Shown: positions 7,823-48,847, counted from the first letter of the stretch. The stretch is DNA of 64,000 nt from an uncultured SAR116 cluster alpha proteobacterium (GCA_902532475.1 CACAIE010000002.1:11670-75669); one strand, 5' to 3'. A program made the numbers and translations. The notes: a model not told the origin generated them from the sequence alone.

Positions 7823-8004
7823 CTCAATAAATTAATGTTACTATTTTGTGGAATATACATTAAATAAAATATTAATAAATTTTATAATCAAAGTTTTACA
7901 ACTTTTATCTTTAATCACCCAGAACAGAAAACTCTTTTTATATTCCTAAAATCAATAACTTCATAAATTGTGAAAGGATCTTCAAAATCAACTAAGATTT
8001 CAAT

Positions 8005-16093: not shown

Positions 16094-16100
16094 TATAACA

Positions 16101-17063: not shown

Positions 17064-17097
17064 GCGGTTAAAACTTATTTGAATTAGGAAAATCATT

Positions 17098-18231: not shown

Positions 18232-18267
18232 TTGAAAAATAACCTAGTTTTTCTGAAAGGAAGATAA

Positions 18268-18963: not shown

Positions 18964-18997
18964 TTTAATTAGAATTTTACAAATAAGGTTTTTAAAA

Positions 18998-20305: not shown

Positions 20306-21333
20306 TGCACAGAAACAACTATCTTAAAGAGCTTATCAAACCTCTGAGAATGAGCATGTATGATTTCAGTGAGGATGAAGTCAAAAAACAACTAGACACT
20401 TTGTTTCATGAGGAAGCTATTATTCATCTTTCTCATCCTTTTGGTGATCTCAAGGGACCTGTTAATTTTTATAATAAATCACTGAAACCATTGTTTATTT
20501 CTATGCCTGACCTTGAAAGACGTGATTATATTGTGATTGCTGGAAAAACAGAAATGGACTTGGAATGGGTTGGCTGCGGTGGTTTTTTCAATGGAACCTT
20601 CATGAAGCCCTTTTTGGACATTCCTCCGACAGGTCATTTAGCTCATATGAGATTTCATGAATTTTATCGTTTTAAAGGCGATAAAATAATTGAAGTCCAA
20701 GCTTTATGGGATATTCCAGAACTTATGATGCAATCAAATTCCTGGCCTATGGCTCCAACACTTGGAAGAGAATGGTGCATCCCTGGCCCAGCAACCCTGG
20801 ACGGAATTTCAGATCAACCTTACGACGATCATAAAAGTAACTCTTCGGTTAAAGATGTTATGGATATGCTCACATCCATGAAAAAACATCCTTCAGAAGG
20901 AGGTCCAGAAGTAATGAGAATGGACTATTATTGGCATCCTAAAATGAATTGGTACGGGCCTTCCGGAATAGGAAGTAGCAGAGGTATAGAAGGGTTTAGA
21001 AACTGGCATCAAATCCCATTCCTTAATTCTATGCCTGATAGAGGAAAGTATGTAAAAGACATTACATATCATTTTTTTGGGGACTGTGATTATGTAGGCG
21101 TAACTGGTTGGCCAAATATGATCCAAACTATTTCTCATGATGGCTGGATGGGAATAGCTCCAGTTAATAAAAAAATTGAAATGCGATCTTTAGACTTTTG
21201 GAGACTAGAAAATGGTAAAATAAGAGAAAATTGGGTTATGGTAGACATCCTTGATGTTTACCATAAAATTGGTGTAGATGTATTTGCAAGATTAAGAGAA
21301 TTTAATAAAGCCAAAAATATGAAAGGTTACTAG
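20305..21333 (+). CDS. Tandem SnoaL/NTF2-like domain protein
   Basis: GTG start overlaps the previous stop by 1 nt (TAGTG). C-terminal pattern GWMGIAPVNKKIEMRSLDFWRLENGKIRENWVMVDILDV. Paralogous to 8005..8998 and 15125..16093. Confidence 0.75.
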   Translation: MHRNNYLKELIKPLRMSMYDFSEDEVKKQLDTLFHEEAIIHLSHPFGDLKGPVNFYNKSLKPLFISMPDLERRDYIVIAGKTEMDLEWVGCGGFFNGTFMKPFLDIPPTGHLAHMRFHEFYRFKGDKIIEVQALWDIPELMMQSNSWPMAPTLGREWCIPGPATLDGISDQPYDDHKSNSSVKDVMDMLTSMKKHPSEGGPEVMRMDYYWHPKMNWYGPSGIGSSRGIEGFRNWHQIPFLNSMPDRGKYVKDITYHFFGDCDYVGVTGWPNMIQTISHDGWMGIAPVNKKIEMRSLDFWRLENGKIRENWVMVDILDVYHKIGVDVFARLREFNKAKNMKGY

Positions 21334-21335
21334 AT

Positions 21336-22100
21336 TTGAAACTTCCAACCACACCATCATTTAGATTAGACAATAAAAATGCTTTAATTACTGGATCTTC
21401 ATCTGGAATTGGTTTGGGTTGTGCTGTTGCATTAGCCGAAGCTGGAGCATCAGTTGTTTTAGCTGCGAGAAGAAAAGAACCACTCGAAGAATTAAAAAAC
21501 AAACTTATAGAAAAAGGTCATAAAGCTGCAATTTTAGAATTGGATATTACTGACACAAAAAAAGTTGAAACTATCCTAAATGACCAACCTACCTTTGACA
21601 TATTGGTTAATAGTTCCGGAATGGCAAAGCATACCCCAACAATAGAAACAACAGAAGAAGACTTTAACTCTGTCATAGATGTTAACCTCAAAGGCGCATA
21701 TTTTATTACTAAAGAAGTTGCTAAAAAACTAATAAAAGAAAAAAAACCTGGCTCATTAATCAATATTTCTTCTCAAATGGCTTACGTTGGTGGAATTGAT
21801 AGAGCTGTTTACAGTGCTTCCAAACACGCTGTTGAGGGATTTACTAAATCAATGGCTATTGAGTTTGGTCCATATAAAATAAGAGTTAATACAATTTGTC
21901 CTACCTTTATCAAAACTGCTCTCACTCTTGCTACATTTGATGATCCTGAAAAAATTAATTGGGTGAAAAGTAAAATAAAATTGGGCAGAACAGGTGAAGT
22001 TGAAGACATAATGGGTGCAGCGGTTTATTTAGCATCAGACGCATCATCATTAGTAACAGGCACTTCAATTTTAATTGATGGTGGTTGGACTTCTGGATAG
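21336..22100 (+). CDS. SDR-family oxidoreductase
   Basis: TGSSSGIGLG cofactor motif, YSASKHAV catalytic YxxxK, and NTICPT. Confidence 0.9.
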   Translation: MKLPTTPSFRLDNKNALITGSSSGIGLGCAVALAEAGASVVLAARRKEPLEELKNKLIEKGHKAAILELDITDTKKVETILNDQPTFDILVNSSGMAKHTPTIETTEEDFNSVIDVNLKGAYFITKEVAKKLIKEKKPGSLINISSQMAYVGGIDRAVYSASKHAVEGFTKSMAIEFGPYKIRVNTICPTFIKTALTLATFDDPEKINWVKSKIKLGRTGEVEDIMGAAVYLASDASSLVTGTSILIDGGWTSG

Positions 22101-22211
22101 TCTAAATAGAATTTTTAAATTAGATTTTCTTTATATAATTTATTTATTTTCTCAAGATGTTAATTTATCATTAATTCAAAATAACTTCATTGGATATATT
22201 TCTGTAATTGT

Positions 22212-23486
22212 ATGAAAAAACTAAAAACTCAAGACGAATGGATTGCTAGAGCAAAAGAGGTTTTGCCTGCTGCCGGTTTTGGTAACTTTGAAAATGATAT
22301 CATTATAAAAGAAGGAAATGGGAGCAAAGTCTGGGACGAGGATGGTAATGAGTATATAGATTACCTGATAGGATCAGGGCCCATGTTATTGGGGCATGGA
22401 CACCCCGAAGTAATGGAGGCGATCCTTAAGCAACTACCTCAAGGGATGACTTTTTTTGCAAATAATTCGAAGGGGATAGAATTAGCAGAAGAAATTTGTA
22501 ATGCAGTAAAATGTTCTGAACAAGTTAGGTTTGTCAGTTCAGGTGGAGAAGCTGATATGTATGCAATGAGACTTGCTCGAGCATTTACAGGAAAAGATAA
22601 AATACTAAAATTTGAGGGGGGCTACCATGGAATGAGCGCTGAAGCTCAAATGAGTTTATCACCTTCAGTTTCGGTTAATTTTCCCCAAGCTGTCCCGGAT
22701 AGTGCGGGCATCCCTGAAAATATTCAAAAAGACGTTCTCATTGCACCTTTCAACGATCTTGAATTCATAGCGTCTATAGTTTCAGAATACCATGACCAAA
22801 TTGCTGGCATCATCGTTGAACCTCTTCAACGAATAATACCTCCATTACCTGGTTTTCTTGAAGGCTTGAGAAAAATATGTGACAGCAACAATATTCTGCT
22901 TATTTTTGATGAAATTGTTACAGGGTTTCGATTGGCTTACGGAGGCGCCCAAGAAAAATACAATGTCACACCTGATATTTGTACACTAGGAAAAATAATT
23001 GGCGGTGGCTTTCCATTAGCTGCAATTGCAGGCTCTAAAGAAATTATGTCCCATTTTGATCAATCGAGTGTTGGCAAAGATAAATGGTTAATGCAAGTTG
23101 GAACCCTTTCAGGAAACCCCATTGCTGCAGCGGCTGGTTTAAAGACTATGGAAGTTTTGAAAAGGGATGGGATGTTTGCAAAACTTCATCAACGTGGACA
23201 AGAGATTATGGATTGCATGAGCGAATGTTTTAAAAGGGCTAATATCCATCATAGAATTGTTGGAGATCCGTCATTATTTGATGTTCTTTTTATAAACGAA
23301 GACGTGAACAACTATAGAAATTCTATTAAGGCTGACGCCAAGCTCAACGCTCGTTTTAACCAAGGCCTCAGAAAACGCAAAATTTTTAAAGCTTCAGCTA
23401 AACTCTACCCAAGTCTAGCTCTAACTGATGAAGACATCTATCACACAAAAGAGGCAATTAAAGATACTGTTTTAAATTTAGTGTAA
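22212..23486 (+). CDS. Class-III (GSA-aminomutase-like) PLP aminotransferase
   Basis: GSGPMLLGHGHPEV, DEIVTGFR, and LGKIIGGGFPL (PLP lysine). Confidence 0.88.
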   Translation: MKKLKTQDEWIARAKEVLPAAGFGNFENDIIIKEGNGSKVWDEDGNEYIDYLIGSGPMLLGHGHPEVMEAILKQLPQGMTFFANNSKGIELAEEICNAVKCSEQVRFVSSGGEADMYAMRLARAFTGKDKILKFEGGYHGMSAEAQMSLSPSVSVNFPQAVPDSAGIPENIQKDVLIAPFNDLEFIASIVSEYHDQIAGIIVEPLQRIIPPLPGFLEGLRKICDSNNILLIFDEIVTGFRLAYGGAQEKYNVTPDICTLGKIIGGGFPLAAIAGSKEIMSHFDQSSVGKDKWLMQVGTLSGNPIAAAAGLKTMEVLKRDGMFAKLHQRGQEIMDCMSECFKRANIHHRIVGDPSLFDVLFINEDVNNYRNSIKADAKLNARFNQGLRKRKIFKASAKLYPSLALTDEDIYHTKEAIKDTVLNLV

Positions 23487-23487
23487 G

Positions 23488-24684
23488 TTAATGATCTAAA
23501 CCTGTGCCTCCATAGAGCCATTCAATATTATCATGCCATTCATCCTGGGATTTAGACTTCATAATTTTGTTGCGAAGTAGAGCATGAGCTCCGTCAGGAT
23601 GATAAACATGTTTTCCTATTTCTCTTGATTGCAGTTGAACTCTAGCTGTTCTTATAATCCTATTATTCTGGTAATTTAATAAAGATACTTCAATATTACT
23701 TAATCCAGGCTTCATTGCTTCAGATAAGCAAACTGCGTCCTCAATAGCCATGCATGCTCCTTGAGCTAAATATTGGAGCATGGGGTGCGCAGCATCCCCA
23801 AGTAAAGTTACACGGCCATCCACCCAGTTTGTGATTGGTTCACGATCACACAACACCCATAACTTCCAATCCTTCCCTCTTTCTATAATCTGCCGAGCAA
23901 CTGGGTTAACATGATCAAAGCCCTTCCTAACAACTTCTTTTGAAACTAACTTTCCAGCGACTGGTTTTGGAGCGTTATTGTGGTATGTAACAACTAAATT
24001 AAAAAACTTCCATCCAGAGAGTGGATAGTGAACAATATGACATTTGGGCCCTGCCCAAAGTGTTGCAGCATTCCACCTCAGTTCTTCCGGCATATCTTTG
24101 ATTGGAATAACAGAGCGGTAAGTTGTGTGACCTGAAACTTTTGGGGGACCATCCCCTACCAATTGCTCCCTTATCTTTGACCATAACCCCTCGGCACCTA
24201 TGAGTGCAGTGCCATTTACCTCATCTCCATTTTCCATTAACGCTGAAACATTTTCTCCTTTTTGCTTATAACCGACCACATGCGCGTTAGTTTGAAGTTC
24301 AACATATTTATTATTCTTGCATGCCTCGAGGAATACTGCATGTAAATCCCCTCTATGGACAACAGCATATGGATTTTTAAATCGTCTGCGAAATTTATGT
24401 CCTAAAGAAATTCTAGTAATCTCATCCCCCTTAATGGCATCCATTAATATCAAGTCGTCAATATAAACTGACATCTTCCTCGCTTGATCTCCAATTCCAA
24501 GATAGTCAAATCCATGAAAAGCGTTTGGCCCCAATTGAATTCCAGCACCAATTTCACCTAATTTTGAGGCCTTCTCCAGGACAATAGAATTTATTCCCTG
24601 CTGTGCTAAACCAAGAGCAGAAGCTAGTCCTCCTATACCTCCTCCGACAATGATAAATCTATTTTTTTTGATAGACTTCATCAA
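23488..24684 (-). CDS. FAD-dependent aromatic-ring monooxygenase (salicylate / 3-hydroxybenzoate hydroxylase family)
   Basis: GGGIGGLASALGL dinucleotide fold, LLGDAAHPM, and conserved DG region. Confidence 0.85.
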   Translation of the reverse strand: MMKSIKKNRFIIVGGGIGGLASALGLAQQGINSIVLEKASKLGEIGAGIQLGPNAFHGFDYLGIGDQARKMSVYIDDLILMDAIKGDEITRISLGHKFRRRFKNPYAVVHRGDLHAVFLEACKNNKYVELQTNAHVVGYKQKGENVSALMENGDEVNGTALIGAEGLWSKIREQLVGDGPPKVSGHTTYRSVIPIKDMPEELRWNAATLWAGPKCHIVHYPLSGWKFFNLVVTYHNNAPKPVAGKLVSKEVVRKGFDHVNPVARQIIERGKDWKLWVLCDREPITNWVDGRVTLLGDAAHPMLQYLAQGACMAIEDAVCLSEAMKPGLSNIEVSLLNYQNNRIIRTARVQLQSREIGKHVYHPDGAHALLRNKIMKSKSQDEWHDNIEWLYGGTGLDH

Positions 24685-24692: not shown

Positions 24693-25340
24693 CTATTCTG
24701 CATCTGGTTGATTTTCTGGATGGGCATCTTTAAAGGCTTCCAACGAACTGCAATGATTAAAAATTTTCATAAGGATTGGCATCTCTGATAGGTCGACGTT
24801 GAACCTTTGTGCAGAAAAAATTTGTGGAACCAGACAAATATCAGCAAGACTGGGATGATCCCCAAAGCAAAAATCTAGATTGTGATTTTGATTTTTGATC
24901 ATTTCCTCACAAGCAGCAAGCCCGCCGCCCAGCCATCTCTTTAACCATTTATCAATTTGTTTACTATCTTGATTAAACTCTTCAGTAATAAACTCTTGAA
25001 CTCTCAGATTTTGCAGTGGGTGAATTTCGCACGCTATGCTTTGCGCAAAAGCTCTAACTTTAGCCTTTAAATTTGTATCTTCTGGCAGTAAATTTGGTAT
25101 GGAGTATTTTTCATCAAGCCACTCAATAATTGCCATGGATTGCGTTAATATAAATCCATCATCCTCAATCGAAGGGATCAATGCTTGTGGGTTTATTTTT
25201 TTATATTTTAAGCTATTCTGCTCACCACCATCATTTTTCAGGTGAATGAGTTTTAAATCATAGTCTATATTTTTAAGATTAAATGCAATTCTACATCTGT
25301 ACGCTGCTGAACTTCTAAAGTATCCATATAATTTTATCAT
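24693..25340 (-). CDS. maiA: Maleylacetoacetate/maleylpyruvate isomerase (GST zeta class)
   Basis: SSAAYRCRIAFNLK active-site motif of zeta-class GSTs. 215 aa. Confidence 0.8.
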   Translation of the reverse strand: MIKLYGYFRSSAAYRCRIAFNLKNIDYDLKLIHLKNDGGEQNSLKYKKINPQALIPSIEDDGFILTQSMAIIEWLDEKYSIPNLLPEDTNLKAKVRAFAQSIACEIHPLQNLRVQEFITEEFNQDSKQIDKWLKRWLGGGLAACEEMIKNQNHNLDFCFGDHPSLADICLVPQIFSAQRFNVDLSEMPILMKIFNHCSSLEAFKDAHPENQPDAE

Positions 25341-25448
25341 TAAACACTCCCTTCCGAAAAATTATCTGGTTTTCCATTAGCGGTCTGTAATGAATGTACA
25401 TAATAATTTAATATTGAAATTATCAGATATTCAAGACAAAAGTACTCA

Positions 25449-26291
25449 CTAACTTAAAGCAATAAATATTAGTCCTACTGTAACAGCTGAAGCTGCAATG
25501 ATCCTTAATTGCCACGGCCTTTCCTTAAAGATAAACAGTCCTATGATAGAGCCAAAAATAACAGAAGTTTCCCTTAAAGAAGACACAATGCCCAATGGTG
25601 TGGTTACTTTTACTGTTATAACAATGGCATAAGCCACACAGGATAAAGTTCCACCTAAGGTTCCCTGGATAACAGTTTTTTTATCCAAAATTAAATTTAA
25701 TTTTTTAGATATTCTCCAAAAAATTATTATTCCACCAATGCCCTCTAAAATAAACAACCAACTGATGTATCCAAGAGCCGTCTTCGATTCCCTTGCTCCG
25801 ATGCCATCTAAAAGAGAGTATGATGCTATGCAGATACCTGTTAACAGTGCAAAGTTTAATGCCTTATATGAAATTGAATAAAAGAAACTATACAAAGAGA
25901 GAATTATAATACCAAAGGATACAAAGATAATCCCTACCATTCCATTACCCAAGGGCAACTCACCAATAAATAAAAATGCTCCCAACGTTACTATTAATGG
26001 AGCAATACCCCTCATTAATGGGTAGACTTCACTTAAATCACCCCATTTGTAACTTTGATAAAGAAAAAATAAATAAGCGAGATGAACAATGGTAGACGCA
26101 ATCAAATACGGCCATGCCGAAAATTCTGGAAATAAAGAGAAAAAACTTAGAACAATTCCAAAAACTAAATGGGCAAGGCTAATTAAAAAAACAACTAATG
26201 ACTTTTTTTCATTAGTTTTTACTAAAGAATTCCATAAGGCATGCAGCAAAGCTGCTGTGAGAACCATAAAATAAGAAGTCAACGTAATCAT
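25449..26291 (-). CDS. DMT-superfamily (EamA-like) permease
   Basis: 280 aa with about ten hydrophobic segments and a duplicated EamA-type architecture. Confidence 0.8.
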   Translation of the reverse strand: MITLTSYFMVLTAALLHALWNSLVKTNEKKSLVVFLISLAHLVFGIVLSFFSLFPEFSAWPYLIASTIVHLAYLFFLYQSYKWGDLSEVYPLMRGIAPLIVTLGAFLFIGELPLGNGMVGIIFVSFGIIILSLYSFFYSISYKALNFALLTGICIASYSLLDGIGARESKTALGYISWLFILEGIGGIIIFWRISKKLNLILDKKTVIQGTLGGTLSCVAYAIVITVKVTTPLGIVSSLRETSVIFGSIIGLFIFKERPWQLRIIAASAVTVGLIFIALS

Positions 26292-26323
26292 AATTTACAG
26301 CACACTTCCATACTATATTTGTA

Positions 26324-27508
26324 TCAGCGAATTGATAAAAGTTCTTGAGCAACCCATTTGTTAAAATGATGAGTGGGATTGTCCATGACTGGCGAAAAAT
26401 TACCTCCATTAAATATGGGGGATTGCCTTCCTTCTTGCATGCCTTCTATAATATCTATGTCTTCAGATTGTACACTATGCCATTGTTTAAAGTTTTGCTT
26501 TCTGATTGACTTATACTTGTCTGATTTCGCGGCTTCCTCACCAACGTAATATATGTCCATATGCTCTTTAGTAAAATCATGACTGATTGGCTCTAGCCAA
26601 TAAACATAATAATGGTCCCTATGAATGCCCAACATAACGTTTGGAAAAAGGGCAACATACTCAGCGATTTTTTCTTTTTCTTTAGGCCAATTAGGGAAAT
26701 TAGGAAACGTTTCTCCTCCCTCAAATTTAGGATCGTAAACTACTGTTCCTTGCCCTGCGAACCTATTTGGCAAACCTTGAATATGATAGTGATCTTCAAG
26801 TTTTGAGTAAGAGTTCAAGCCAGGGTGAACCCAAGGCAAGTGATAACTCTCACAATAATTTTCAATTGCAAACTTCCAATTACATTTTGCCTCCAACAAG
26901 AAATAACCACTATCATCAGCATGTTTAATTAAGGATTGATCTTCTTTTGGCCAAAACTTCGACCATCTATCTTCGAGGGGCTTTATATATTCGTCAAAAG
27001 GGATCTGATTATTAGAAATATTAACAAATATCATATCAAGCCAAATATAAGACCTAACCTCATGTAAATTACTATCAGACTTATTAAAACCTTCAGCTTC
27101 ATTTCTATCCATTCCACCTAAATGTGGTGTAGACACTAATTTTCCATTCAAATCGTAAGCCCATGAATGATAAGGGCAACGTAAAGCATTTTTTATACGG
27201 CATGGTTTCTGAAGAATTTTATATCCTCTGTGACTACAAACATTATGGAAAACCCTTATTGACTGATCCTTATCTCTCAAAATAATTAACGGGATCCCAA
27301 GCAAATTAAATGGAACAGCGTCTCCTGGGTTCTTTATTGAACTTGCAACTCCAATAACAACCCATTTATCCTCAAATAGATATTTCCTCTCAAATTTTGA
27401 ATAATCCCCACCAAGATAACACTCGTTTGGAAGCCCATGCGCAGTTTCAATCGAATTGCAAACAATATCCAATTTTTCTAATGGAATATAACCTTCTATT
27501 TTTTTCAT
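26324..27508 (-). CDS. Rieske [2Fe-2S] non-haem iron oxygenase alpha subunit (N-demethylase/monooxygenase type)
   Basis: Rieske motif CSHRG-x16-CPYH and mononuclear iron motif NYCESYHLPWVH. No reductase or beta subunit gene is adjacent. Confidence 0.85.
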   Translation of the reverse strand: MKKIEGYIPLEKLDIVCNSIETAHGLPNECYLGGDYSKFERKYLFEDKWVVIGVASSIKNPGDAVPFNLLGIPLIILRDKDQSIRVFHNVCSHRGYKILQKPCRIKNALRCPYHSWAYDLNGKLVSTPHLGGMDRNEAEGFNKSDSNLHEVRSYIWLDMIFVNISNNQIPFDEYIKPLEDRWSKFWPKEDQSLIKHADDSGYFLLEAKCNWKFAIENYCESYHLPWVHPGLNSYSKLEDHYHIQGLPNRFAGQGTVVYDPKFEGGETFPNFPNWPKEKEKIAEYVALFPNVMLGIHRDHYYVYWLEPISHDFTKEHMDIYYVGEEAAKSDKYKSIRKQNFKQWHSVQSEDIDIIEGMQEGRQSPIFNGGNFSPVMDNPTHHFNKWVAQELLSIR

Positions 27509-27522
27509 TTGCCCTCCTTAAC

Positions 27523-29094
27523 CTAAAAGTCTGTTTTAACTCCACCTTCAGACTTTCTTCTTTCTACAAAAGATTTAAGTTCATCTTTAATATGTATGTC
27601 AATCTCAGGTGCTTCAAATTCATTTAAAATATTTTTCCATATTTTGTTCGCCCTTTGATGGGTCCATTCAGCCCCATCCTGTTCCCAAGCTTCATAATTT
27701 CTCCAATCGGAAAGAAACGGTGAGTAAAACGCATTTGTGTATCTTTCCTGGGTATGATCACAACCAAAAAAATGCCCATTAGGACCAACTTCACGAATAG
27801 CTTCTACAGCAAGAGAACCCTCTCCTACATCGGAAATGACAGGATCAAAGTATCTCTGAAATTGCTGTAACACCTCACAGTCCATTACAAATTTTTCATA
27901 GCTTGCAATCAAACCACCCTCTAGCCATCCAGCTGAGTGGTAAACAACATTTACACCTCCTGTGCTAGCAGACCATAAACTATTTAAGCTTTCCCACATA
28001 GCCTGGCCATCTGGAGCGTTTGCAGCACAAGCGTTTGAAGCCCTTAAAGGCAAACCATAAAACCGAGCCATTTGCCCTGTGATTTGAGTGGCCCTTATAT
28101 ATTCAGGCGTCCCAAATGCAGGTGCGCCACTCTTCATATCAACATTTGATGTAAACGTTCCAAAAACACAAGGTGTACCAGGATTAATGTATTGTAATAA
28201 AGCTATTGCAGCCAATCCCTCTGCCAATGACTGAACCACAGCACCTGTCATAGTAACAGGCGCCATTGCACCAGCTAAGGTAAATGGCGTGACAAATACT
28301 GGCTGCCCTCTCCTTGCAAATCTCATAGCGCCATCAAGCATAGGGTGGTCATGTTTCAAAGGAGAAGAAGAATTTATATTTGTATAAATTCGTGGTTTAG
28401 AAAAAAATTCTTCCTCCGAAAGCCCCGATGCAATTTTTGCCATTTCAATCGCATCTTCCACACGTTGGCTCCCCAAAGAATAAGCGTGACATACTTTATC
28501 GGTTAACGTCAATTTCTCATACAAGCAATCCAGATGTCGGACCGAAGCGTGAATATCAACGGGTTCAACAGGATACCCTCCCGCTAAATGAATGCAATTA
28601 AAATACTGGGTCAATTTCATCAGGTCTTTAAAGCTCTCAAAGTCTCCGACCCTTCTTCCTCTATCTAAATCCATAACATTCGGTGGCGAGGAAACATTTA
28701 CAAAGGCCATATTCCGACCCCCAACCTTTACAGCTCTATCAGGATTGCGAGGAATGATCTCAAATTCAGTAGGCGCTTTAGCGATCATTTCTGAAACCCA
28801 TTGCCGATCCATTTTCACATTGTCAGAACTTTTATCTACCGTGCAACCTGCATCAATTAATATGTTCTTCGCTTCTTCATTGAGAAACTCTATTCCTATT
28901 TCCTCAAGAACTTGCATTGCAGCATTGTCAACTGCTGCGACACCCTCAGCATTAAGTGGTTCAATAAAGTTATCAGTATTATAAGGTATCTTCCATTCTA
29001 ATTGCTCAATGGTTTTCTTTCCTTTTCTGAGTGATTTACTAGATCTACCTCCGGATCTTCTTGCAGTTCTTTGTGTCAATTTAGCCTCACTCAA
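27523..29094 (-). CDS. MttB-superfamily methyltransferase (non-pyrrolysine)
   Basis: 523-aa uninterrupted ORF with no in-frame TAG. Its N-terminus is similar to the partial gene at 63701. ATGA overlap with the upstream gene. Confidence 0.8.
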   Translation of the reverse strand: MSEAKLTQRTARRSGGRSSKSLRKGKKTIEQLEWKIPYNTDNFIEPLNAEGVAAVDNAAMQVLEEIGIEFLNEEAKNILIDAGCTVDKSSDNVKMDRQWVSEMIAKAPTEFEIIPRNPDRAVKVGGRNMAFVNVSSPPNVMDLDRGRRVGDFESFKDLMKLTQYFNCIHLAGGYPVEPVDIHASVRHLDCLYEKLTLTDKVCHAYSLGSQRVEDAIEMAKIASGLSEEEFFSKPRIYTNINSSSPLKHDHPMLDGAMRFARRGQPVFVTPFTLAGAMAPVTMTGAVVQSLAEGLAAIALLQYINPGTPCVFGTFTSNVDMKSGAPAFGTPEYIRATQITGQMARFYGLPLRASNACAANAPDGQAMWESLNSLWSASTGGVNVVYHSAGWLEGGLIASYEKFVMDCEVLQQFQRYFDPVISDVGEGSLAVEAIREVGPNGHFFGCDHTQERYTNAFYSPFLSDWRNYEAWEQDGAEWTHQRANKIWKNILNEFEAPEIDIHIKDELKSFVERRKSEGGVKTDF

Positions 29095-30617
29095 ATCTTA
29101 AATAGCTTTTCTATTTTCCCATTAGTGACAAATTCTTCTAGTAAAAAAGTACAGTTATTTATGTCATCATTCATTGGACGATCATCATCAATTTTGTCAA
29201 TTGTTTTTCTAACTTGTTTCCATATATTTTTAGTTAATGATGAAACTTTATCTGTTGTTTTAACATTGTTATACCTCAAGTCTAAAGCTTGGCTTGCCAC
29301 TAAACACTCCATGCCTGCAATTAATTTCATTAATTTGGATTGCTGTAACAATTTTTTTGCACAGGCTGGTGTCATTGTAGACATATCTTCAACCGACTCA
29401 GATACTGGACTTGCATCAAAGGCTATGGGCAAAGAGTATTGTTTAATTTCTACCAGGACTGAAGCTGCAGTTTTTTGAGTAGAAACGAAACCCGCAGATT
29501 TTCCTCCTACTGGGGATAAATACTTGGGAAGATCTGAAACTCTTTCATCCATAAGCCTCTGCATACGTTGCACCGATCCATTTGCAGTCATCGTATTGGA
29601 AAGCAATAAACTTTCTATCGATATAGCCAGTCCAGGATTGTGAAAATTAGGAGTAGATAAAAATTTTCTGTCATCAATTATCACTGGACTATCTGTAATA
29701 CCATTTAACTCATTTTCCCAAATTGATATTGTATGTTTTAGATTTGATTTTGCCAGGCCGATCATGACAGCCACAGTCCTGAAAGAAAGAGGGTCTTGTA
29801 TTCTTCTGCCTTGTCTTTTTAATGGTTTTAAAATTTTATAATACCAGTCAGCACATTCTTTTTGACCTGGAGAATTCCTTAAATGATTGATATCTGGCAA
29901 AAATATTTGATGATTAGCACTAAATGCCTCAATAGACATGAGGGATGACAACTGATGCATCATCAAACATGTTTTTGTTTCATTTAAAGCTTGGGCAGAA
30001 AGAGCGATAGATAGGCATGAATGATTAACTAAAACCATAGCGTCCTTTCCATCAATTTTAGGGATGTTAAGCAGTTCTGATTTTAATTTTATTTTTGAAC
30101 TTTTAATTTTTCCTTTGTCCCAAATCTTTCCCCTTCCCAGAAGGGACAAGCCAAAAGATGCATTTTGAGTAAGGTCTCCAGCTCCAATTGATCCAAACTC
30201 TGGAATTGCTGGATCAAATCCTTTCGAAAAACAGTCAATCATAAATTTATATAATTGAGGGGAAACTCCTGTGCCACCTCTTGATGATTGGATGCACCTT
30301 GTTAGAAGTGTCATGAGGCCTAAATTTTCATTTAAATAATTTCCTGAGCCTACTGCTCGGCCCTCGATGATTTGAAGTTGAAAGTTGGAAATTTCTTCCT
30401 TACTTAAACTATAATTTAGATTACCACCAAGCCCTGTATTTAAACCGTAAACTGACTTTCCTTCTTCTAAAGCTCTTTTTACATAATCAAATTCAGTGTT
30501 AATTTTTTTTAAAGATTTCTTATCCAGAATGATTCTAAGTTTATTTCTCTTTAAATTATCTAAAATTAGAAAGAACGTATTTAAGTCAATAGTTTTTCCA
30601 TCAAGAAAAATCTTCAT
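29091..30617 (-). CDS. Aromatic amino acid lyase (HAL/PAL) family protein lacking the MIO-forming Ala-Ser-Gly triad
   Basis: Aligns with hutH throughout. The Tyr loop SVYGLNTGLG is retained, but the MIO region reads GSIGA-GDL (30171..30194) where hutH has GSVGASGDL. Confidence 0.85.
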   Translation of the reverse strand: MKIFLDGKTIDLNTFFLILDNLKRNKLRIILDKKSLKKINTEFDYVKRALEEGKSVYGLNTGLGGNLNYSLSKEEISNFQLQIIEGRAVGSGNYLNENLGLMTLLTRCIQSSRGGTGVSPQLYKFMIDCFSKGFDPAIPEFGSIGAGDLTQNASFGLSLLGRGKIWDKGKIKSSKIKLKSELLNIPKIDGKDAMVLVNHSCLSIALSAQALNETKTCLMMHQLSSLMSIEAFSANHQIFLPDINHLRNSPGQKECADWYYKILKPLKRQGRRIQDPLSFRTVAVMIGLAKSNLKHTISIWENELNGITDSPVIIDDRKFLSTPNFHNPGLAISIESLLLSNTMTANGSVQRMQRLMDERVSDLPKYLSPVGGKSAGFVSTQKTAASVLVEIKQYSLPIAFDASPVSESVEDMSTMTPACAKKLLQQSKLMKLIAGMECLVASQALDLRYNNVKTTDKVSSLTKNIWKQVRKTIDKIDDDRPMNDDINNCTFLLEEFVTNGKIEKLFKI

Positions 30618-31621
30618 TAAGCAAACCTAAGCCTTTCCCCCAAACCAATTTTCTTGGCCTTTAATAGTATTTTATGGCCTAATGCGATGTCTGAAAGAGA
30701 TAAACCTCTATGCCAAAACAATATTGTCTCTTCTTGATTTTCTCGGCCTTTTTTAATACCGCAAACTATTTGCCCAAGTTCAGCATGAAGTGTTTCATGG
30801 GTAATTTTTCCTTTATCAATATGCTCCCTTAATGACCCAAAGATACCCTTGGCTTGCCCCCAATCGTCCATGACAAATTTATCCATGATATCAGGGAGTG
30901 AAAACTCAACAGCTGACATAGTACCATACGGTACAACTAAAGCTCCTTTTTTTATCCATTTTGTTTTCAAGAGAGGCTCAGGCTTAGACAATCTAGAAGC
31001 TTCAACCACTATATCAGCTTCTTGAATGCAGCTTTTCCAATCTTCAGTCACTATGATTTTCCTGTTCAAATCATTTCTCAATTTCTCAGCGAAACTATTT
31101 CTACTTTCTTCTCTTTTTGAGTGGATCCTCACTTCTTCAAAATCAAATAAATGGCACAACAGACGAACATTCCAATACGCGGTTCCTCTCGATCCTATAT
31201 GCGCTAACACTCGTGGTTTATTTATTGATAAATATTTGGCACCTATAGCAGTGATTGCCCCAGTTCTCATGTCTGTAATTCCTGTGGCATCAACTATAGC
31301 TTTTGGAGACCCATTTCTTGGGTTAAATAAAGTCAGAACACCATATTCCGAAGGTCTGTTTTCTTGGTAATTATCAACAAAATCACCTACAACCTTAGTG
31401 CCAGCACTATCGATTTCTCCGCCTATCCATCCCCTTAGAACATTAAAGTGTCCATTTGCTCCTGCCCTAGGTCTTATATGGGTTCTTGGTTCAATTTCAG
31501 TTTCTCCCTTACCCTGCATTTTGAGGCTTTTCTCAATAGAAAATAAAATTTCATTATTGGTAAGGGCAACTTTTTCGACATCAAATTTATTAATAAAATC
31601 GATGTAAACTTCAGGCGTCAT
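30617..31621 (-). CDS. Ornithine cyclodeaminase / mu-crystallin family NAD(P) enzyme
   Basis: 334 aa with family pattern (MRTGAITAIGAKYL, HIGSRGTAYW). TAATG overlap with the downstream lyase. Confidence 0.82.
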   Translation of the reverse strand: MTPEVYIDFINKFDVEKVALTNNEILFSIEKSLKMQGKGETEIEPRTHIRPRAGANGHFNVLRGWIGGEIDSAGTKVVGDFVDNYQENRPSEYGVLTLFNPRNGSPKAIVDATGITDMRTGAITAIGAKYLSINKPRVLAHIGSRGTAYWNVRLLCHLFDFEEVRIHSKREESRNSFAEKLRNDLNRKIIVTEDWKSCIQEADIVVEASRLSKPEPLLKTKWIKKGALVVPYGTMSAVEFSLPDIMDKFVMDDWGQAKGIFGSLREHIDKGKITHETLHAELGQIVCGIKKGRENQEETILFWHRGLSLSDIALGHKILLKAKKIGLGERLRFA

Positions 31622-32274
31622 GAAGATTTTCCTTCTAGTCCTTCAGAGGCTTTGCCTGAGGCTCCCGGTATCCGCATCTCAAACACTTCGGTAATTGAGG
31701 TATAATCATAATATCCTAATCTTGCTAAAGGTCTTAATTTTTTGATATCCATTTTACCGTTCTCATTAATATAATTATCATTTACATGGATACGGGTTAC
31801 TTCTCCATAAACTACATCGACGTATCCATGATTTGAGTTGCCAGTTAAACGGTGAGTTGTCAGATATTTACATTCAAAATGTGCAGGGGACTCTGCTACT
31901 CTCGGAACCTTTGTATCCATACATTCTTCTTTTGAAATACCTGCATGTAAAAACTCATCTTCAAGAAAAGGAAGCTCCATAGCTGAAATATTAACTGCTT
32001 CACGCAAATCATAAGTTGCCATATTCCATACAAACCAACCAGTTTTTTCAGCATTTATGACCGTATGCTTTCTTTCCCCTGAGGAGAGATGGTTAGCAGC
32101 GAACATCACCATAGGTGGGTCAAATGTCAGGTTTTGCCATTGGCTGTAAGGAGCAAGATTTGGCACTCCATCTTCAGAAAGCGTTGAGAGCCACCCAATG
32201 GGCCTTGGAACAGTACACGATTTAAATGGTGAATAAGGGAGAGGGCATTTTTCTTTTGTTGGAGAATAATGCAT
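31618..32274 (-). CDS. Flavin reductase-like (FMN-binding split-barrel) protein
   Basis: VPRPIGWLSTLSEDGVPNLAPYS motif typical of the flavin reductase domain family. Confidence 0.75.
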   Translation of the reverse strand: MHYSPTKEKCPLPYSPFKSCTVPRPIGWLSTLSEDGVPNLAPYSQWQNLTFDPPMVMFAANHLSSGERKHTVINAEKTGWFVWNMATYDLREAVNISAMELPFLEDEFLHAGISKEECMDTKVPRVAESPAHFECKYLTTHRLTGNSNHGYVDVVYGEVTRIHVNDNYINENGKMDIKKLRPLARLGYYDYTSITEVFEMRIPGASGKASEGLEGKSS

Positions 32275-32286
32275 AGTAAAAACCCT

Positions 32287-33954
32287 TTACTTGATACTAG
32301 GTAAATTTAGATTATGATTTTTTGCACTTTCAATTGCTATTTCATAGCCTGCATCCGCATGCCTCATAACACCTGTAGCTGGATCATTCCATAAAACTCT
32401 TTTGATTCTCTCTGACGCTTTATCAGAACCGTCACAACAAATGACCATGCCTGCATGTTGACTATAACCCATTCCTACCCCGCCGCCATGATGAAGTGAA
32501 ACCCAGGTTGCTCCACTTGCTGTATTAAGCATTGCATTGAGAAGAGGCCAGTCACTGACAGCATCAGATCCATCCCTCATCGCTTCAGTTTCTCTATTAG
32601 GACTGGCTACTGAGCCACTGTCCAAATGATCTCTTCCGATAACAACAGGTGCTGAGAGTTCACCCTTCGCAACCATTTCATTAAAAGCCAAACCCAATTT
32701 ATCTCTTTGGCCTAATCCAACCCAGCAAATTCTTGCAGGTAGGCCTTGAAATTTTATCCTTTCTCGTGCCATGTCCAACCATTTATGAAGGTGCTTATCA
32801 TCTGGAATTAGTTCTTTTACTTTAGCGTCTGTCTTATAAATATCTTCTGGGTCTCCAGATAAGGCACACCATCTGAATGGCCCTATTCCCCTGCAAAAAA
32901 GTGGTCTAATGTAAGCAGGCACAAATCCAGGGAATGAAAAGGCAGTCTCTAAACCTTCATCAAGGGCAACCTGCCTAATATTGTTTCCATAGTCTAGAGT
33001 TGGTACTCCCATATTCCAAAAATCAACCATCGCAGACACATGCTTTTTCATAGATTTTCGGGCTTCAGCTTCCACAATCTTAGGATTACTTTCTCTTTTC
33101 TCCTTCCATTCGCTTATTGACCAGCCTTCAGGCAAGTAGCCATTAGTTGGATCATGTGCACTGGTTTGGTCGGTAACAATATCTGGTCGCACTCCCATTT
33201 CAACGATCTTTGGAAAGATCGTTGCAGCGTTGCCAATTAAACCGACTGATTTAGACAATCCAGAAGAAGTCCATTGATCGATCATAGACAAGGCCTCTTC
33301 TAAAGTATTCGCTTTTTCATCTAAATAACCAGTTCTAAGTCGAAAATCGATACTATCAGAATTACATTCAACGGCTAAGCAACAGGCTCCGGCCATCACG
33401 GCAGCAAGCGGCTGCGCACCACCCATACCTCCTAACCCTGCAGTTAATATCCATTTTCCCTTTAAATCTCCTTTATAGTGTTGTCTTCCAGCTTCAACAA
33501 ATGTTTCGTACGTTCCCTGAACAATCCCTTGAGTACCTATATAAATCCATGACCCAGCTGTCATTTGCCCATACATTGCCAACCCTTTTTTATCTAATTC
33601 GTTAAAATGATCCCAATTTGCCCAATTAGGAACCAAGTTAGAATTTGCTATTAAAACTCGCGGTGCATCTTCATGTGTTTTGAAAACTCCTACAGGCTTA
33701 CCAGATTGAACAAGAAGAGTTTCATCCTCATTTAATTTCTTTAAACTAGAGAGAATTTTATCAAAATCGCTCCAACTCCTGGCTGCTCTTCCTATCCCTC
33801 CGTAGACAACCAGCTCATTCGGGTTCTCAGCTACATCAGGATGCAAGTTGTTCATTAACATACGCATCGGCGCTTCTGTTAACCAGGATTTAGCTGTAAT
33901 TTCATTACCAGTAGGAGGTATTACAACCCTTGAATTTTTAATTAATTCTGACAT
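32287..33954 (-). CDS. hutU: Urocanate hydratase
   Basis: 555 aa. [17 protein letters not shown]-binding motif and urocanase-specific conservation throughout. Confidence 0.95.
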
Positions 33955-33973
33955 CTATTCTTTCCTTTTTTAA

Positions 33974-35515
33974 TCATGAATTCAAGAACGTTGAAAACGG
34001 AATATTTAATTCTGCTTCACTTATTATAAACTTGTCCTCAAGCAAATTTGTCACTTTATTTATATCAGTTGCCATATACCTATCCTCTTTCAAACGAGGG
34101 ATATGTTTTCTAAGACAAACTATCACTTTATCCAATGCAGGTGATGTTTTTAATGGTTCTCGTGCATCAATTCCCTGTGAAGCACAAAGGAGTTCAATCC
34201 CAAAAATAGAGGATAGATTTTTATTCATTTTAAATAATCTGTATGCGCCATGAGCAGCCATTGAAACATGATCCTCTTGATTTGCTGAAGTCGGAGTTGA
34301 GTCAGTTACACAAGGATTTGCTAAATGCTTATTTTCACTCATTAGCGCTGCCGATGTAACTTCCGCAATCATAAATCCTGAATTTAATCCTGGATTATCT
34401 GTTAGGAAGGCTGGAAGGTCGTGACTGAGTGTAGGATCAACCATAAGAGCAATTCTTCTTTGAGAAATTGATCCCATTTCAGCTAAGGCTAAAGCTATTT
34501 GATCTGCGGCAAATCCAATAGGCTCCGCGTGAAAATTACCACCAGAAACTATTCTTTCTTCATCTACTAAGACTAGAGGGTTATCAGTTACTGCATTTGC
34601 TTCAATCTCAATAGTAATTGCAGCATTTTTTAAAATATCTAAACAAGCACCTAAAACTTGTGGCTGACATCTTATACAATATGGATCTTGAACTCTTTGA
34701 TCATCTTCCCTGTGGCTTTCTCGAATAATGCTCCCTAACATTAAATCCCTCATTTTTTTAGCAACAAAAATTTGACCTTTATGACCTCTTAATGTGTGAA
34801 TTTGCCCCATAAGAGGGCTAGTGGAACCCATTATGGCATCAGTAGATAAAGATGAAATAACGATTGAGTTTAAAATTGACCGCCATCCATTAAATAAATT
34901 AGCAAGGGCACAAGCAGTAGAAAATTGCGTTCCATTCAGTAACGCTAAACCTTCCTTGGGACCAAGGATGATAGGATCAATTTTTGCCTTTTTAAGCGCT
35001 TCACTTCCAGTAACTTTTTTCCCATCATAAAAAGCCCACCCTTCTCCTATCATTACAGCAGCCATATGCGCTAAAGGAGCTAAGTCCCCTGAAGCACCAA
35101 CAGATCCTTGATGAGGAATTTCAGGCACTATCCCTGAGTTAATTATTTTTTCAATTTGAATAATAGTCGACCATTTTACTCCAGAAGCACCAAGAGACAG
35201 CGATATCATTTTTAAAATCATCATAAGTCTTGTTACGTCTTCTTCAAGAGGTTCACCTACTCCTGAGCAATGACTTAAGACCAAATTTTTTTGAAGTTTT
35301 TTGCGATCTTCTTGAGGGATAACTTTGTTAGCAAGCTTCCCGAAACCTGTGTTTACACCGTAAACAGGTAAATTTCCTTTAGCCGATGCTTCAACAATTT
35401 TTGCTGCTTTTTCAACCCTATCTTTTAGCGAGATATCTAAAGTTACATTGAGTTTATTCCTAAAGATTTTCTCTAGAAAATCTAATTTGATTGATCCAGG
35501 TTTGAGAGTTTCCAT
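33974..35515 (-). CDS. hutH: Histidine ammonia-lyase
   Basis: [14 protein letters not shown] with intact ASG (codons 35087..35095) and Tyr loop [10 protein letters not shown]. Confidence 0.95.
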
Positions 35516-36735
35516 TATATTGACCCCCCAAATATTCTCTTGTAAAGAGCGTTAAATCCTATCCTGTATGAAAATTCTGAAGGATGCTCTAAATTCCATA
35601 TAGCAAGATCAGCTATCATACCTGGTTTAATCTGTCCAAGGTCTTTTAAAGATAGGGCATCCGCAGCATGTTTTGTTACGCCAGACAATGCCTCAAGAGG
35701 TGTTATCTTGAAGAGGGTTGAAGCCATATTCATTGCAAGTAAAATTGAAGTCAAAGGCGATGAACCAGGATTGCAATCAGTAGCTATTGCCATAGGCACT
35801 TTATACTTTCTAAACAATTCTATAGGAGGTTTTTGCGTTTCATTTAAAGTATAATAAGCCCCTGGTAGTATTACAGCCACACTTCCCGATTTTGACATTA
35901 ACTTGGCATCTTCTTCATTGGCATACTCCAAATGATCAATAGAAATTGCATCATAGGAAGTTGCTAACTTAACCCCACCAGAGTGGCTTAATTGCTCAGC
36001 ATGCAATTTAATTGGTAAATTTAGTTTTTGAGCAAGATCAAAAACTTCTTTTAATTGCTCCACATTTAAAGCAACAGTTTCACAAAATCCATCAACAGCA
36101 TCAACTAACCCTTCTTCATTCGCTTTTTTTAATGCCGGCAAACAAACCTCTTTGATATAATTTTCAGGATTATTTTTATATTCAGGTGCAATTCCATGCG
36201 AACCTAAAAAACTAGTTTTGATACGAATAGGTCGCAACGACTCTAATCTTTTAGCCACTCTCAACATCAGACATTCAGTTTCAATGTCCAGCCCATATCC
36301 AGATTTTATTTCTATTGTTGTGACACCGTTTCCAATCATATCATCAAGTCTCACAAGAGATGAACTTAATAAATCATCGAAACTTGCCTCTCTTGTAGCT
36401 TTCATAGTTGAAGCAATGCCACCACCTGCTTTTGCTATTTCTTGGTATGACTTACCATTTAGCCTCATATTAAATTCAGTAGATCTATTTCCGCCAAATA
36501 CTAGGTGCGTATGACAATCGATTAGACCTGGGGTTATTAATTTTCCTTTAGCGTTGTATTCATTATATTTCTTATATTTATTAGGAATATCTTTTTCTTC
36601 TCCGGACCAAACAATCTGTTCCCCATCAATAGCAATTGCTCCATTGTTTGTGATTTCAAAATCATCTTGATCATCGGACATAGGGGCCAATTTTGCATTT
36701 CTGATTAAATTTTGATTATATTGATCTTGTGCCAT
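35515..36735 (-). CDS. hutI: Imidazolonepropionase
   Basis: Amidohydrolase motifs [17 protein letters not shown] and [10 protein letters not shown]. 1-nt overlap with hutH. Confidence 0.93.
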
Positions 36736-36813: not shown

Positions 36814-38196
36814 ATGAATATTACGAATAAGAAAATATTTTCTAATAAAGCTCTTCTTCCAGATGGATGGGCAAATAATATATTACTTGAAATTGATAGA
36901 GCAGGTTTAATCTCTTCAGTAACAAAAAATTGCGACAAGAGTAAAATAAGTTTTGATTTAAACGAAGATATAATTATTCCCGCCATGAATAACTTACATA
37001 GCCATAGTTTCCAAAGAGCTATGGCTGGACTTTCAGAAAAACAAAGCCCAGGAGGCAATGATAGCTTTTGGACTTGGAGAGATTTAATGTACAAGTTTCT
37101 TGATCTCCTTACCCCTGAAGATATTTATTCAATCACTGCATTTAGCCAAATGGAAATGTTGGAAGCTGGATATTCTTGCGTAGGTGAATTTCATTATATT
37201 CACAATGAAATTGGTGGAAATCATTACAATAATATTGCTGAATTGTCAGAGAAGGTTTTAGAAGCATCATCAGACAGTGGAATAAATATTTGTTTGTTAC
37301 CAGTCCTTTATGAAAGAGGCGGTTGTGATGGCAGAGAACTAATCGGGGGGCAACTGAGATTTAAAAATACATTTGACAGTTATGCTAAGTTAATTGAGAA
37401 AAATACGGAACTGACTTCAAAGAGTGATAATTTTTCACTTGGTGTAGCGGCGCACTCTCTTAGAGCTGTAAATGATTATAACATTGAAAAAATGATTAGT
37501 TTGGTTGATGGGCCTATACATATACATGTCGCAGAGCAAGTTAAAGAAGTTGAAGAAATTGAAGAGGCATACAAACTAAAACCTGTAGAGTGGTTATTAG
37601 AAAATCAAGATATCAATAAGAATTGGTGTCTTATCCATTGCACCCAAATGACTGAAAATGAAACATTGGCTTTAGCTGCTTCTGGAGCTGTTGCAGGCCT
37701 CTGCCCAGTCACTGAAGCCAACCTTGGAGATGGTATATTTAATGGGTTGGAGTTTTTTAAAAATAAAGGAATTTTTGGTATTGGGACGGATTCTAATATT
37801 AATATTAGCTTGGTTGAAGAATTAAAAACATTTGAATACACGCAAAGGCTTAAACATAAAAAAAGGTCAGTAATATCTCAATCTCACAAATCAACAGGCA
37901 GAGCAGTTTTTGATAATTGCCTGAAAGGTGGATCCCAAGCTCTTCAAAGAAAAAATGGTAAAATAGAGGAAGGCTATTATGCTGATTTAATTTCACTAAA
38001 TCCTAGAAACATAGATCTCATCGGGCTCTCACAAGACACCATTCTTGATAGTTGGATATTTGCTTCAAATTATAACTTAATTGATAATCTATGGGCGACA
38101 GGAAATCTTTTAGTTAAAAATGGAAAACATATAAAACGAGATTTTATTTTCTCTAACTACAAACAAACCATTTCTAAATTAAGAAGCAAGTTATAG
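36814..38196 (+). CDS. hutF: Formimidoylglutamate deiminase
   Basis: NLHSHSFQRAMAGLSE motif, 460-aa amidohydrolase. Divergent from hutI across a 78-bp spacer. Confidence 0.85.
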   Translation: MNITNKKIFSNKALLPDGWANNILLEIDRAGLISSVTKNCDKSKISFDLNEDIIIPAMNNLHSHSFQRAMAGLSEKQSPGGNDSFWTWRDLMYKFLDLLTPEDIYSITAFSQMEMLEAGYSCVGEFHYIHNEIGGNHYNNIAELSEKVLEASSDSGINICLLPVLYERGGCDGRELIGGQLRFKNTFDSYAKLIEKNTELTSKSDNFSLGVAAHSLRAVNDYNIEKMISLVDGPIHIHVAEQVKEVEEIEEAYKLKPVEWLLENQDINKNWCLIHCTQMTENETLALAASGAVAGLCPVTEANLGDGIFNGLEFFKNKGIFGIGTDSNINISLVEELKTFEYTQRLKHKKRSVISQSHKSTGRAVFDNCLKGGSQALQRKNGKIEEGYYADLISLNPRNIDLIGLSQDTILDSWIFASNYNLIDNLWATGNLLVKNGKHIKRDFIFSNYKQTISKLRSKL

Positions 38197-48786: not shown

Positions 48787-48790
48787 CTGA

Positions 48791-48847
48791 ATTCTCCGCT
48801 TTAGTGCTTTAGACAATCAGGGCGCACAAGTTGTAGTTTAAATGCCC
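48791..48847 (-). promoter_or_regulatory. Candidate RBS-proximal SAM-V-like pseudoknot aptamer
   Basis: Minus strand GGGC...GCCC stem, loop GUGC able to pair with the downstream GCAC, then UAAAGCGGAG containing the RBS. Its position after a SAM-II-like aptamer and terminator matches the tandem SAM-II/SAM-V arrangement published for marine bacteria. The fold was not verified. Confidence 0.35.

Follow-up and report, generated by a model that had tools for sequence, protein, structure and literature searches.

A run of nine genes on the minus strand was analysed in a 64,000-nucleotide stretch of DNA (the window) from an uncultured SAR116 cluster alpha proteobacterium (GCA_902532475.1 CACAIE010000002.1:11670-75669). 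In this run the histidine-utilisation (hut) genes hutI, hutH and hutU are followed by a flavin-reductase-like gene, a member of the ornithine cyclodeaminase (OCD)/mu-crystallin family, a lyase of the histidine ammonia-lyase (HAL) fold without the 4-methylideneimidazole-5-one (MIO) group, an MttB-superfamily methyltransferase, a Rieske oxygenase and an EamA permease. The run was found, with high confidence, to be a concatenation of four separable units. The first, hutI-hutH-hutU with a divergent hutF, would be the ordinary histidine-to-glutamate pathway, and the second, the flavin-reductase-like gene, a common companion at the 3' side of hutU. The third, OCD and MIO-less lyase, would be a self-contained two-gene feeder module, and as a pair these genes are present in hundreds of Alpha- and Betaproteobacteria. 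The fourth, MttB-Rieske-EamA, would be an independent quaternary-amine cassette, most likely for choline/glycine-betaine-type substrates, whose MttB would draw on a corrinoid protein encoded elsewhere and which would merely happen to be fused downstream in the SAR116-like lineage. The lyase is probably a trimethylammonia-lyase that feeds urocanate to the Hut enzymes.

Modular architecture of the gene run

One genome per species was scanned for the lyase, which gave 80 loci (designated here by L numbers, as are other contigs) onto which the window proteins were mapped; families were assigned with Pfam and NCBIfam, using the curated NCBIfam cut-offs. The OCD gene adjoined the lyase gene on the same strand in 69 of the 80 loci, lay within 10 kb without being adjacent in two, and was not found in nine, four of which were truncated contigs. 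In 16 of the 80 loci (15 of the 59 in which at least 6 kb of upstream sequence was present), a true hutU with hut neighbours lay immediately upstream in the same orientation, and the probability of chance adjacency to one operon of about 5 kb in a several-megabase genome is estimated at well under 1%. OCD and lyase are a conserved unit, linked to hut far above chance. The flavin reductase was found near the lyase in nine of the 80 loci, MttB in three and the Rieske orthologue in two, all of the MttB and Rieske matches coming from the window's own SAR116-like clade except for one unrelated MttB, in Prosthecomicrobium. A Pfam census of the 64 immediate neighbours of the pair showed no conserved third partner. 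The first-pass annotation had proposed a check of whether the whole block co-occurs with hut genes across genomes; the association proved non-random for lyase and OCD, but MttB and the Rieske gene were mostly absent.

The separability of the units is also visible in a sister lineage. A 98-kb marine contig (L095) carries hutF divergent from hutI-hutH-hutU-flavin reductase, followed after 345 nt by MttB-Rieske-EamA-cupin-GST-FAD monooxygenase. Its DNA matches the window from 32400 to 31431 and then resumes at 29210, a clean 2.2-kb deletion of OCD and lyase, of which the first ~190 nt of the OCD gene and the last ~120 nt of the lyase gene persist as a stop-riddled remnant. The hut genes, flavin reductase, MttB, Rieske and EamA genes are all intact in this lineage, EamA staying with MttB-Rieske, and the same type of deletion was found in four more metagenome contigs (L108-L111). 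Roseobacter-type contigs carry hut, flavin reductase, OCD and lyase without MttB. When the loci are taken together, every combination of hut, flavin reductase, OCD-lyase and MttB-Rieske-EamA occurs, and co-occurrence of all nine genes across genomes, as expected of a single pathway, was not found. The case is a caution for operon-based inference, in that tight packing and overlapping stop and start codons did not here equal one pathway.

The six genes after hutU had been read in the first-pass annotation as one module, converting an N-methylated histidine derivative into urocanate or histidine. In such a six-gene pathway, MttB and the Rieske enzyme (with the flavin reductase) would demethylate hercynine or ergothioneine stepwise, and OCD and lyase would convert the resulting N-methyl- or dimethylhistidine to histidine or urocanate. 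In favour of such a pathway are the close packing of the nine genes and their shared order in the SAR116-like clade, the retention by MttB of the Arg/His pair with which the carboxylate of acidic quaternary amines is bound, and the NtaA-type monooxygenases, capable of N-dealkylation, that lie beside the OCD-lyase pair in soil rhizobia. However, MttB and the Rieske gene are missing from at least 77 of the 80 lyase loci, persist without OCD-lyase in the deletion lineage, and have orthologues of 75% identity in choline/glycine-betaine or stand-alone contexts. Moreover, the characterised MIO-less homologues all require the trimethylammonium group, so that prior demethylation would destroy the substrate of the lyase. 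This route is quite improbable, and the six genes do not form one module; what survives of the earlier reading is the lyase type, the linkage to hut and urocanate as the most likely output. The accompanying statement that no such pathway had been described needs narrowing, since trimethylammonia-lyases for ergothioneine, hercynine and N(pi)-methyl-hercynine have already been published, and stepwise demethylation is therefore unnecessary for reaching urocanate.

The MIO-less lyase

The first-pass annotation had called the lyase MIO-less, which was borne out, the protein being a HAL homologue of the histidine-betaine type: the lyase reads GSIGA-GDL where hutH of the window reads GSVGASGDL, and the one-residue deletion in the MIO triad was present in all 121 + 83 sequences of the clade. 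The lyase scored 273 bits against the hutH equivalog TIGR01225, under the cut-off of 539. Residues Y57, R87, Q274, R280, K382, E410 and D411 were invariant across 120 homologues from databases and 82 loci from genomes or plasmids, and the protein combines the HAL fold, the catalytic Tyr and the Gln/Arg carboxylate binders with the lack of MIO. Lys382 was aligned to Lys384 of the Treponema denticola ergothionase (6s7j, QKT motif), and the His that binds the imidazole N(tau) in HAL (His83) was not kept, Arg87 standing there in all members. MIO-less HAL homologues are known to eliminate trimethylamine from histidine betaines (ergothionase, histidine betaine trimethylammonia-lyase (HBTL) and the Shewanella oneidensis lyases), and in the T. 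denticola enzyme Lys384 is needed for thiolate binding, with Asn or Gln at this position in lyases of sulfur-free substrates.

The AlphaFold model of the lyase (pLDDT 91) gave ergothionase 6s7j as the top Foldseek match with a TM score of 0.90, a value that does not separate ergothionase from HAL (0.89-0.91), and the protein shares only ~25% identity with any member that has been characterised. Alignment with HAL and ergothionase puts Arg87 and Lys382 where the pocket holds the ring and not where it holds the leaving group. Judged from its sequence, the lyase is a distinct clade among the trimethylammonia-lyases, with a second cationic residue (Arg87) predicted to adjoin ring C2. Members of the clade are named 'histidine ammonia-lyase' in public records, a label carried in hundreds of genomes and in abundant marine metagenome clusters although MIO cannot form in these proteins. 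A protein search of a plasmid collection returned distant members only, two of which were informative.

Across alpha- and betaproteobacterial loci the lyase is 31-45% identical, against 62-75% for OCD. Between close relatives of the window (L002, L085, L086, L102-L107) the lyase is 57-63% identical while the flanking genes stand at 84-93%, with the catalytic residues intact; unusually fast evolution or a recombinational allele swap could account for this low identity.

The OCD-family partner

The OCD subfamily keeps the R46/K75/R119 triad when aligned to alanine dehydrogenase (AlaDH), pyrroline-2-carboxylate (Pyr2C) reductase and SbnB, and its invariant residues include H58, R63, R145, H304 and R305. 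The end of strand beta2 reads RIHSKRE, as in NADPH-dependent CRYM, whereas NAD-dependent members have Asp, and the enzyme is probably an NADPH-dependent reductase on this signature. It belonged to no named equivalog among those compared (ornithine cyclodeaminase, AlaDH, EutC, LhpI, SbnB and BhcD), scoring at most 152 bits against cut-offs of 266-472. Two further peculiarities were noted: residues 143-151 read an invariant GSRGTAYWN in place of the GxGxxA dinucleotide loop, and residues 301-311 carry a unique LFWHRGLSLSD motif, so that unusual binding of cofactor or substrate is possible.

The near-constant presence of this partner bears on a simpler explanation, in which the lyase would be a plain hercynine trimethylammonia-lyase like HBTL of Shewanella woodyi and OCD would have a side job, such as the oxidation of N-methyl- or N,N-dimethylhistidine to imidazole-pyruvate, or would serve as an amino-acid dehydrogenase. 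The activity of HBTL is proven, its direct urocanate product would fit the neighbouring true HutU, and OCD has the alpha-carboxylate triad that is usual for enzymes with amino or imino acid substrates. Nevertheless, HBTL and the N(pi)-methyl-histidine betaine lyase have Asn or Gln for the invariant Lys and His for the Arg, the NADPH-type signature favours a reductase over a catabolic dehydrogenase, and a single step would leave unexplained both the adjacency of OCD and its better conservation than the lyase. This explanation was considered unlikely. A hercynine lyase alone needs no partner, yet OCD is near-obligatory, which argues that a second chemical operation is needed.

Proposed function of the OCD-lyase pair

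The architecture, family memberships and conserved residues are observed; from them we infer what the substrate is, in which order the two steps run and what reaction OCD carries out. The invariant Lys382 and Arg87 beside C2, together with the reductase traits of OCD, point to an ergothioneine-type substrate. The lyase would act on a histidine betaine with an anionic group at imidazole C2, that is, ergothioneine or its sulfonate or sulfinate, and eliminate trimethylamine from its alpha-carbon. The OCD enzyme would then transfer hydride from NADPH to C2, with loss of the sulfur group as sulfite or sulfide; in this reaction the sulfonate or thiolate would sit where ketimine substrates have the carboxylate of their imine carbon. 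The urocanate produced would pass to HutU, HutI and HutF, which would complete the breakdown. Graded as a compromise, this explanation as a whole has slightly less than an even chance of being right. Removal of the sulfur group by the OCD enzyme is possible though doubtful, and it is somewhat unlikely that OCD represents a new NADPH-dependent enzyme of reductive C-S cleavage, converting 2-sulfo- or 2-thio-urocanate to urocanate.

Urocanate is most likely the end product of the pair because the linked hydratases are true HutU. Against the models of thiourocanate hydratase and S-methyl-thiourocanate hydratase, hutU of the window scored 672 and 690 bits, under the cut-offs of 930 and 880, respectively. 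Similarly, a thiourocanate hydratase was sought among the lyase-linked hydratases and none was found, all of them passing the hutU model and failing NF058530 and NF058531; the thiourocanate hydratase that would mark an Ert-type aerobic ergothioneine pathway beside the lyase is thus lacking at these loci.

The gene contexts of the pair in other genomes are informative as to the type of substrate. In Rhizobium acidisoli, the pair shares its operon with genes for two NtaA/DmoA-family FMN monooxygenases, a PhnD/SsuA-like protein and an ABC transporter of the OpuAC type, and in R. lusitanum genes for an OpuAC binding protein, a PhnD/SsuA-like protein and a permease are interspersed with the pair. 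This quaternary-amine transporter context points to a quaternary amine as the substrate. The couple of NtaA/DmoA-type FMN monooxygenases and the SsuA-like gene recur beside OCD-lyase in other loci, and a tblastn search of the window with the rhizobial monooxygenase sequences as query found no such genes. The PhnD/SsuA-like gene (PF12974) was seen beside the pair in several soil Alphaproteobacteria, at 9276-10076 of L084 (an R. acidisoli plasmid), at 13529-14347 of L096, and in L050, L052, L059, L065 and L072. In Roseovarius faecimaris (CP034348, L082), the pair sits in an extended hut locus. At 959-3267 and 5695-8880 this locus also has, between hutG and hutU, a family-III CoA-transferase and an acyl-CoA dehydrogenase, possibly a feeder from imidazole propionate, and a TRAP transporter between the flavin reductase and OCD.

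Several observations weigh against the proposed ergothioneine-type route. A sulfite exporter or sulfite oxidase was not enriched among the 64 neighbours of the Pfam census, in which no gene for the handling of sulfite turned up. The rhizobial binding protein is of the generic OpuBC/ProX type and not nearest to EgtUC, which fits a betaine but not ergothioneine specifically, and some pair loci adjoin homogentisate or protocatechuate genes instead of hut. A few genomes (L007, L089) have the flavin reductase together with OCD-lyase but not beside hut, and the position of MttB-Rieske directly after the hut genes even in the deletion lineage may leave room for a histidine-related role of these two. 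In the OCD family the triad normally holds a carboxylate borne by the carbon that reacts, and its use on a C2-sulfonate or thiolate is something that we infer. Finally, betaproteobacterial loci carry a family-5 (peptide/opine-type) ABC transporter with the pair.

This last context, in which the Dpp/opine-type transporter and the pair stand under a LysR regulator, and the fact that OCD resembles SbnB and archaeal AlaDH no less than other members of its family, would suit degradation of an N-(carboxyalkyl)histidine, either a histopine-like opine or a histidine opine metallophore, from which the lyase would free urocanate and an amino acid or whose opine bond OCD would cleave in the manner of SbnB. 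That role was rated highly improbable in view of the quaternary-amine binding proteins at rhizobial loci, the uniform identity of the characterised MIO-less relatives as trimethylammonia-lyases, and the ring-side position of Arg87 and Lys382. Diphthine and trimethyl-homoserine were also considered as substrates and rejected, as no supporting context was found.

If the proposed route is correct, SAR116, roseobacters and rhizobia would break down ergothioneine-type antioxidants in two steps, and sea and soil would hold an aerobic source of trimethylamine and inorganic sulfur that has not been counted before. The route would link a widespread antioxidant to the Hut pathway and would give SAR116 and roseobacters a way of forming trimethylamine that tolerates oxygen; this compound is rich in nitrogen and relevant to climate. 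The OCD chemistry, if true, would be a new activity in the OCD/mu-crystallin family.

The flavin reductase and the MttB-Rieske-EamA cassette

The best match of the flavin reductase in the PDB was the NtaB-like 3bpk. A survey of 80 metagenome loci anchored on this gene, of which 71 were counted for the upstream and 62 for the downstream neighbour, placed hutU directly upstream in 32 of 71 and OCD next in 14 of 62, and the adjacency of hutU and flavin reductase was seen in many marine lineages without OCD-lyase (L113-L178). The flavin reductase is mainly a hut companion. We know of no described role for a PF01613 flavin-reductase-like protein in histidine utilisation. A function as reductase of the Rieske enzyme was considered and rejected, the gene being linked to hutU in lineages without a Rieske gene.

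MttB is a PF06253 TIM barrel with no in-frame amber codon and keeps R312 and H348 of MtgB, the features of a non-pyrrolysine MttB; the cation-pi pair Y97/F356 of MtgB from D. hafniense was not kept, Ser and Gly standing at the aligned positions. Paracoccaceae commonly carry orthologues of 70-77% identity with no hut, lyase or Rieske gene, and in Algicella marina and Pontivivens ytuae the orthologue (~75%) stands alone beside cobalamin genes or DMGDH. These stand-alone orthologues fit the shared MtgC/MtgD corrinoid system described in marine bacteria (PMC12478193).

The Rieske protein has CntA (6y8j) as its best PDB match and thousands of marine homologues of 73-87% identity. Both its Rieske and catalytic domains are present, and against the GbcA equivalog NF058607 it scored 113 bits, under the cut-off of 670. 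In SAR11-like contigs, an orthologue of 75% identity lies beside Aldedh (BADH), DMGDH and a BHMT-type methyltransferase, with no hut, lyase or MttB gene. A BHMT-type homocysteine S-methyltransferase and an aldehyde dehydrogenase were also seen elsewhere in the window (47716-48816 and 56453-57955), and may belong with the betaine metabolism of MttB and the Rieske enzyme.

Gene content and boundaries of the run

The nine tightly packed same-strand genes of the first-pass annotation were recovered as nine minus-strand open reading frames from 36735 to 25449 (Table 1), with the spacings given there from hutI to EamA: a 1-nt overlap, 19 nt, 12 nt, a 4-nt overlap, a 1-nt overlap, a 4-nt overlap, 14 nt and 32 nt. 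At the lyase/MttB junction the 4-nt overlap stands, and the sequence is TTGA with a TTG start (AAG ATT TGA), not ATGA as had been stated. An alternative MttB start is the next TTG (29079), 11 nt past the lyase stop, to which the 518-residue models in relatives point. The reported lack of a terminator hairpin also agreed with our scan, in which no intergenic terminator-like site was found on the minus strand inside the run; the sole minus-strand site was a weak 5-bp stem within hutU, and counts were below those of shuffled sequences.

Table 1. Genes of the run and its flanks in the window, in the order in which the minus strand is read
Gene or product	Position	Strand	Evidence
hutF-like amidohydrolase, formiminoglutamate deiminase type	36814..38196	+	PF01979; L085 orthologue with HutF_N
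hutI, imidazolonepropionase	35515..36735	-	TIGR01224 431 bits, cut-off 298
hutH, true MIO-dependent histidine ammonia-lyase	33974..35515	-	TIGR01225 646 bits, cut-off 539; GASGDL
hutU, true urocanate hydratase	32287..33954	-	TIGR01228 950 bits
Flavin_Reduct protein, hutU-linked accessory gene	31618..32274	-	PF01613
OCD/mu-crystallin family enzyme, lyase partner	30617..31621	-	PF02423, 155 bits
MIO-less HAL-fold lyase, predicted trimethylammonia-lyase, Arg87/Lys382 clade	29091..30617	-	PF00221, 331 bits
Non-pyrrolysine MttB-superfamily methyltransferase	27523..29094	-	PF06253, 713 bits; uninterrupted open reading frame
Rieske non-haem oxygenase alpha subunit, CntA/GbcA/choline-monooxygenase type	26324..27508	-	PF00355 and PF00848
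EamA/DMT permease	25449..26291	-	PF00892
maiA, maleylacetoacetate/maleylpyruvate isomerase type GST	24693..25340	-	TIGR01262, 277 bits
FAD_binding_3 monooxygenase	23488..24684	-	PF01494

The window comes from a SAR116-like alphaproteobacterium of low GC content (~36%), the nearest genome contigs being those of a metagenome-assembled genome (MAG) labelled Rhodobacterales (98% identity) and of a SAR116 MAG. The complete gene order is shared by a SAR116 MAG and marine contigs (L002, L085, L086, L099-L107), so the arrangement is not due to chance, and the divergent position of hutF is kept in at least 11 hut-linked loci. The same-strand run extends past 25449, where a gap of 108 nt is followed by maiA and the FAD monooxygenase, two genes outside the histidine/betaine set. 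SAR116-like relatives carry a Cupin_2 gene (345 residues, gentisate-dioxygenase-like) between EamA and maiA (L085:15227-16264, L095:10211-11248), where the window and L001 have just the 108-nt gap (25341-25448), leaving maiA and the FAD monooxygenase without a ring-cleavage gene. Next to these genes, a conserved plus-strand cluster (16011-23486) encodes a Cupin_2 protein, a MetE-like Meth_synt_2 protein, a 231-residue open reading frame, a HisD-family dehydrogenase, a SnoaL-like protein, a short-chain dehydrogenase/reductase (SDR) and a class-III aminotransferase. Families of this cluster recur near the Rieske orthologue in L093-L095, and its HisD-like and SDR genes resemble dehydrogenases of the sulfonate 2,3-dihydroxypropane-1-sulfonate (DHPS).

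Comparison with known systems

The ergothionases of Treponema denticola (6s7j), Burkholderia sp. HME13 and Shewanella oneidensis (SO_3057) share with the window lyase the HAL fold without the Ala-Ser-Gly triad, the catalytic Tyr, the Gln/Arg carboxylate binders, the imidazole Glu and the equivalent of Lys384. The window lyase differs from them in its identity of ~25%, in its invariant Arg for the N(tau)-binding His, in its predicted cytoplasmic location, no signal peptide being seen in the sequence, and in a gene context of true urocanase and OCD, whereas ergothionases are found with thiourocanate hydratase and Ert genes or with a flavocytochrome. HBTL of Shewanella woodyi (Swoo_3913) and the N(pi)-methyl-histidine betaine lyase (SO_3299) are likewise MIO-less, form urocanate-type products and trimethylamine, and have genes coupled to a urocanate-consuming enzyme, as in the window. 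Unlike the window lyase, they are periplasmic and feed anaerobic urocanate reductases, have Asn or Gln at the position of Lys382, keep the His and are without an OCD partner.

With the branch of mu-crystallin/ketimine reductase and Pyr2C reductase, the window OCD shares the PF02423 fold, the Arg-Lys-Arg triad and the CRYM-like NADPH signature, and it is set apart from that branch by the altered dinucleotide loop, the unique WHRG motif and NCBIfam scores far below cut-off. MttB and the Rieske protein belong to the superfamilies of the MtgBCD glycine betaine demethylase of marine Alphaproteobacteria (PMC12478193) and of the CntA/GbcA/choline-monooxygenase Rieske enzymes, respectively, and like those betaine systems their orthologues lie near DMGDH, BHMT, BADH and cobalamin genes. 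In contrast to those systems, the window run encodes no reductase or corrinoid partner, and the Y97/F356 pair is absent.

A paper by Yan, Huang and Zhang in ACS Catal in 2022 reportedly concerns, to go by its title, an ergothioneine sulfonate catabolic pathway in Agrobacterium radiobacter. The pathway reportedly involves a rhizobial 'ergothionase', and the window clade is common in Rhizobiaceae and is sometimes flanked by SsuA-like and FMN-monooxygenase genes; the A. radiobacter pathway may already cover the OCD-lyase module. Literature searches on hercynine with MttB, on ergothionase with cyclodeaminase and on hutH2 found nothing relevant, the text of this likely key paper lying outside what they covered. 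The lyase type itself is already known, and what is still of interest is a widespread, misannotated Arg87/Lys382 lyase with a near-obligate OCD partner.

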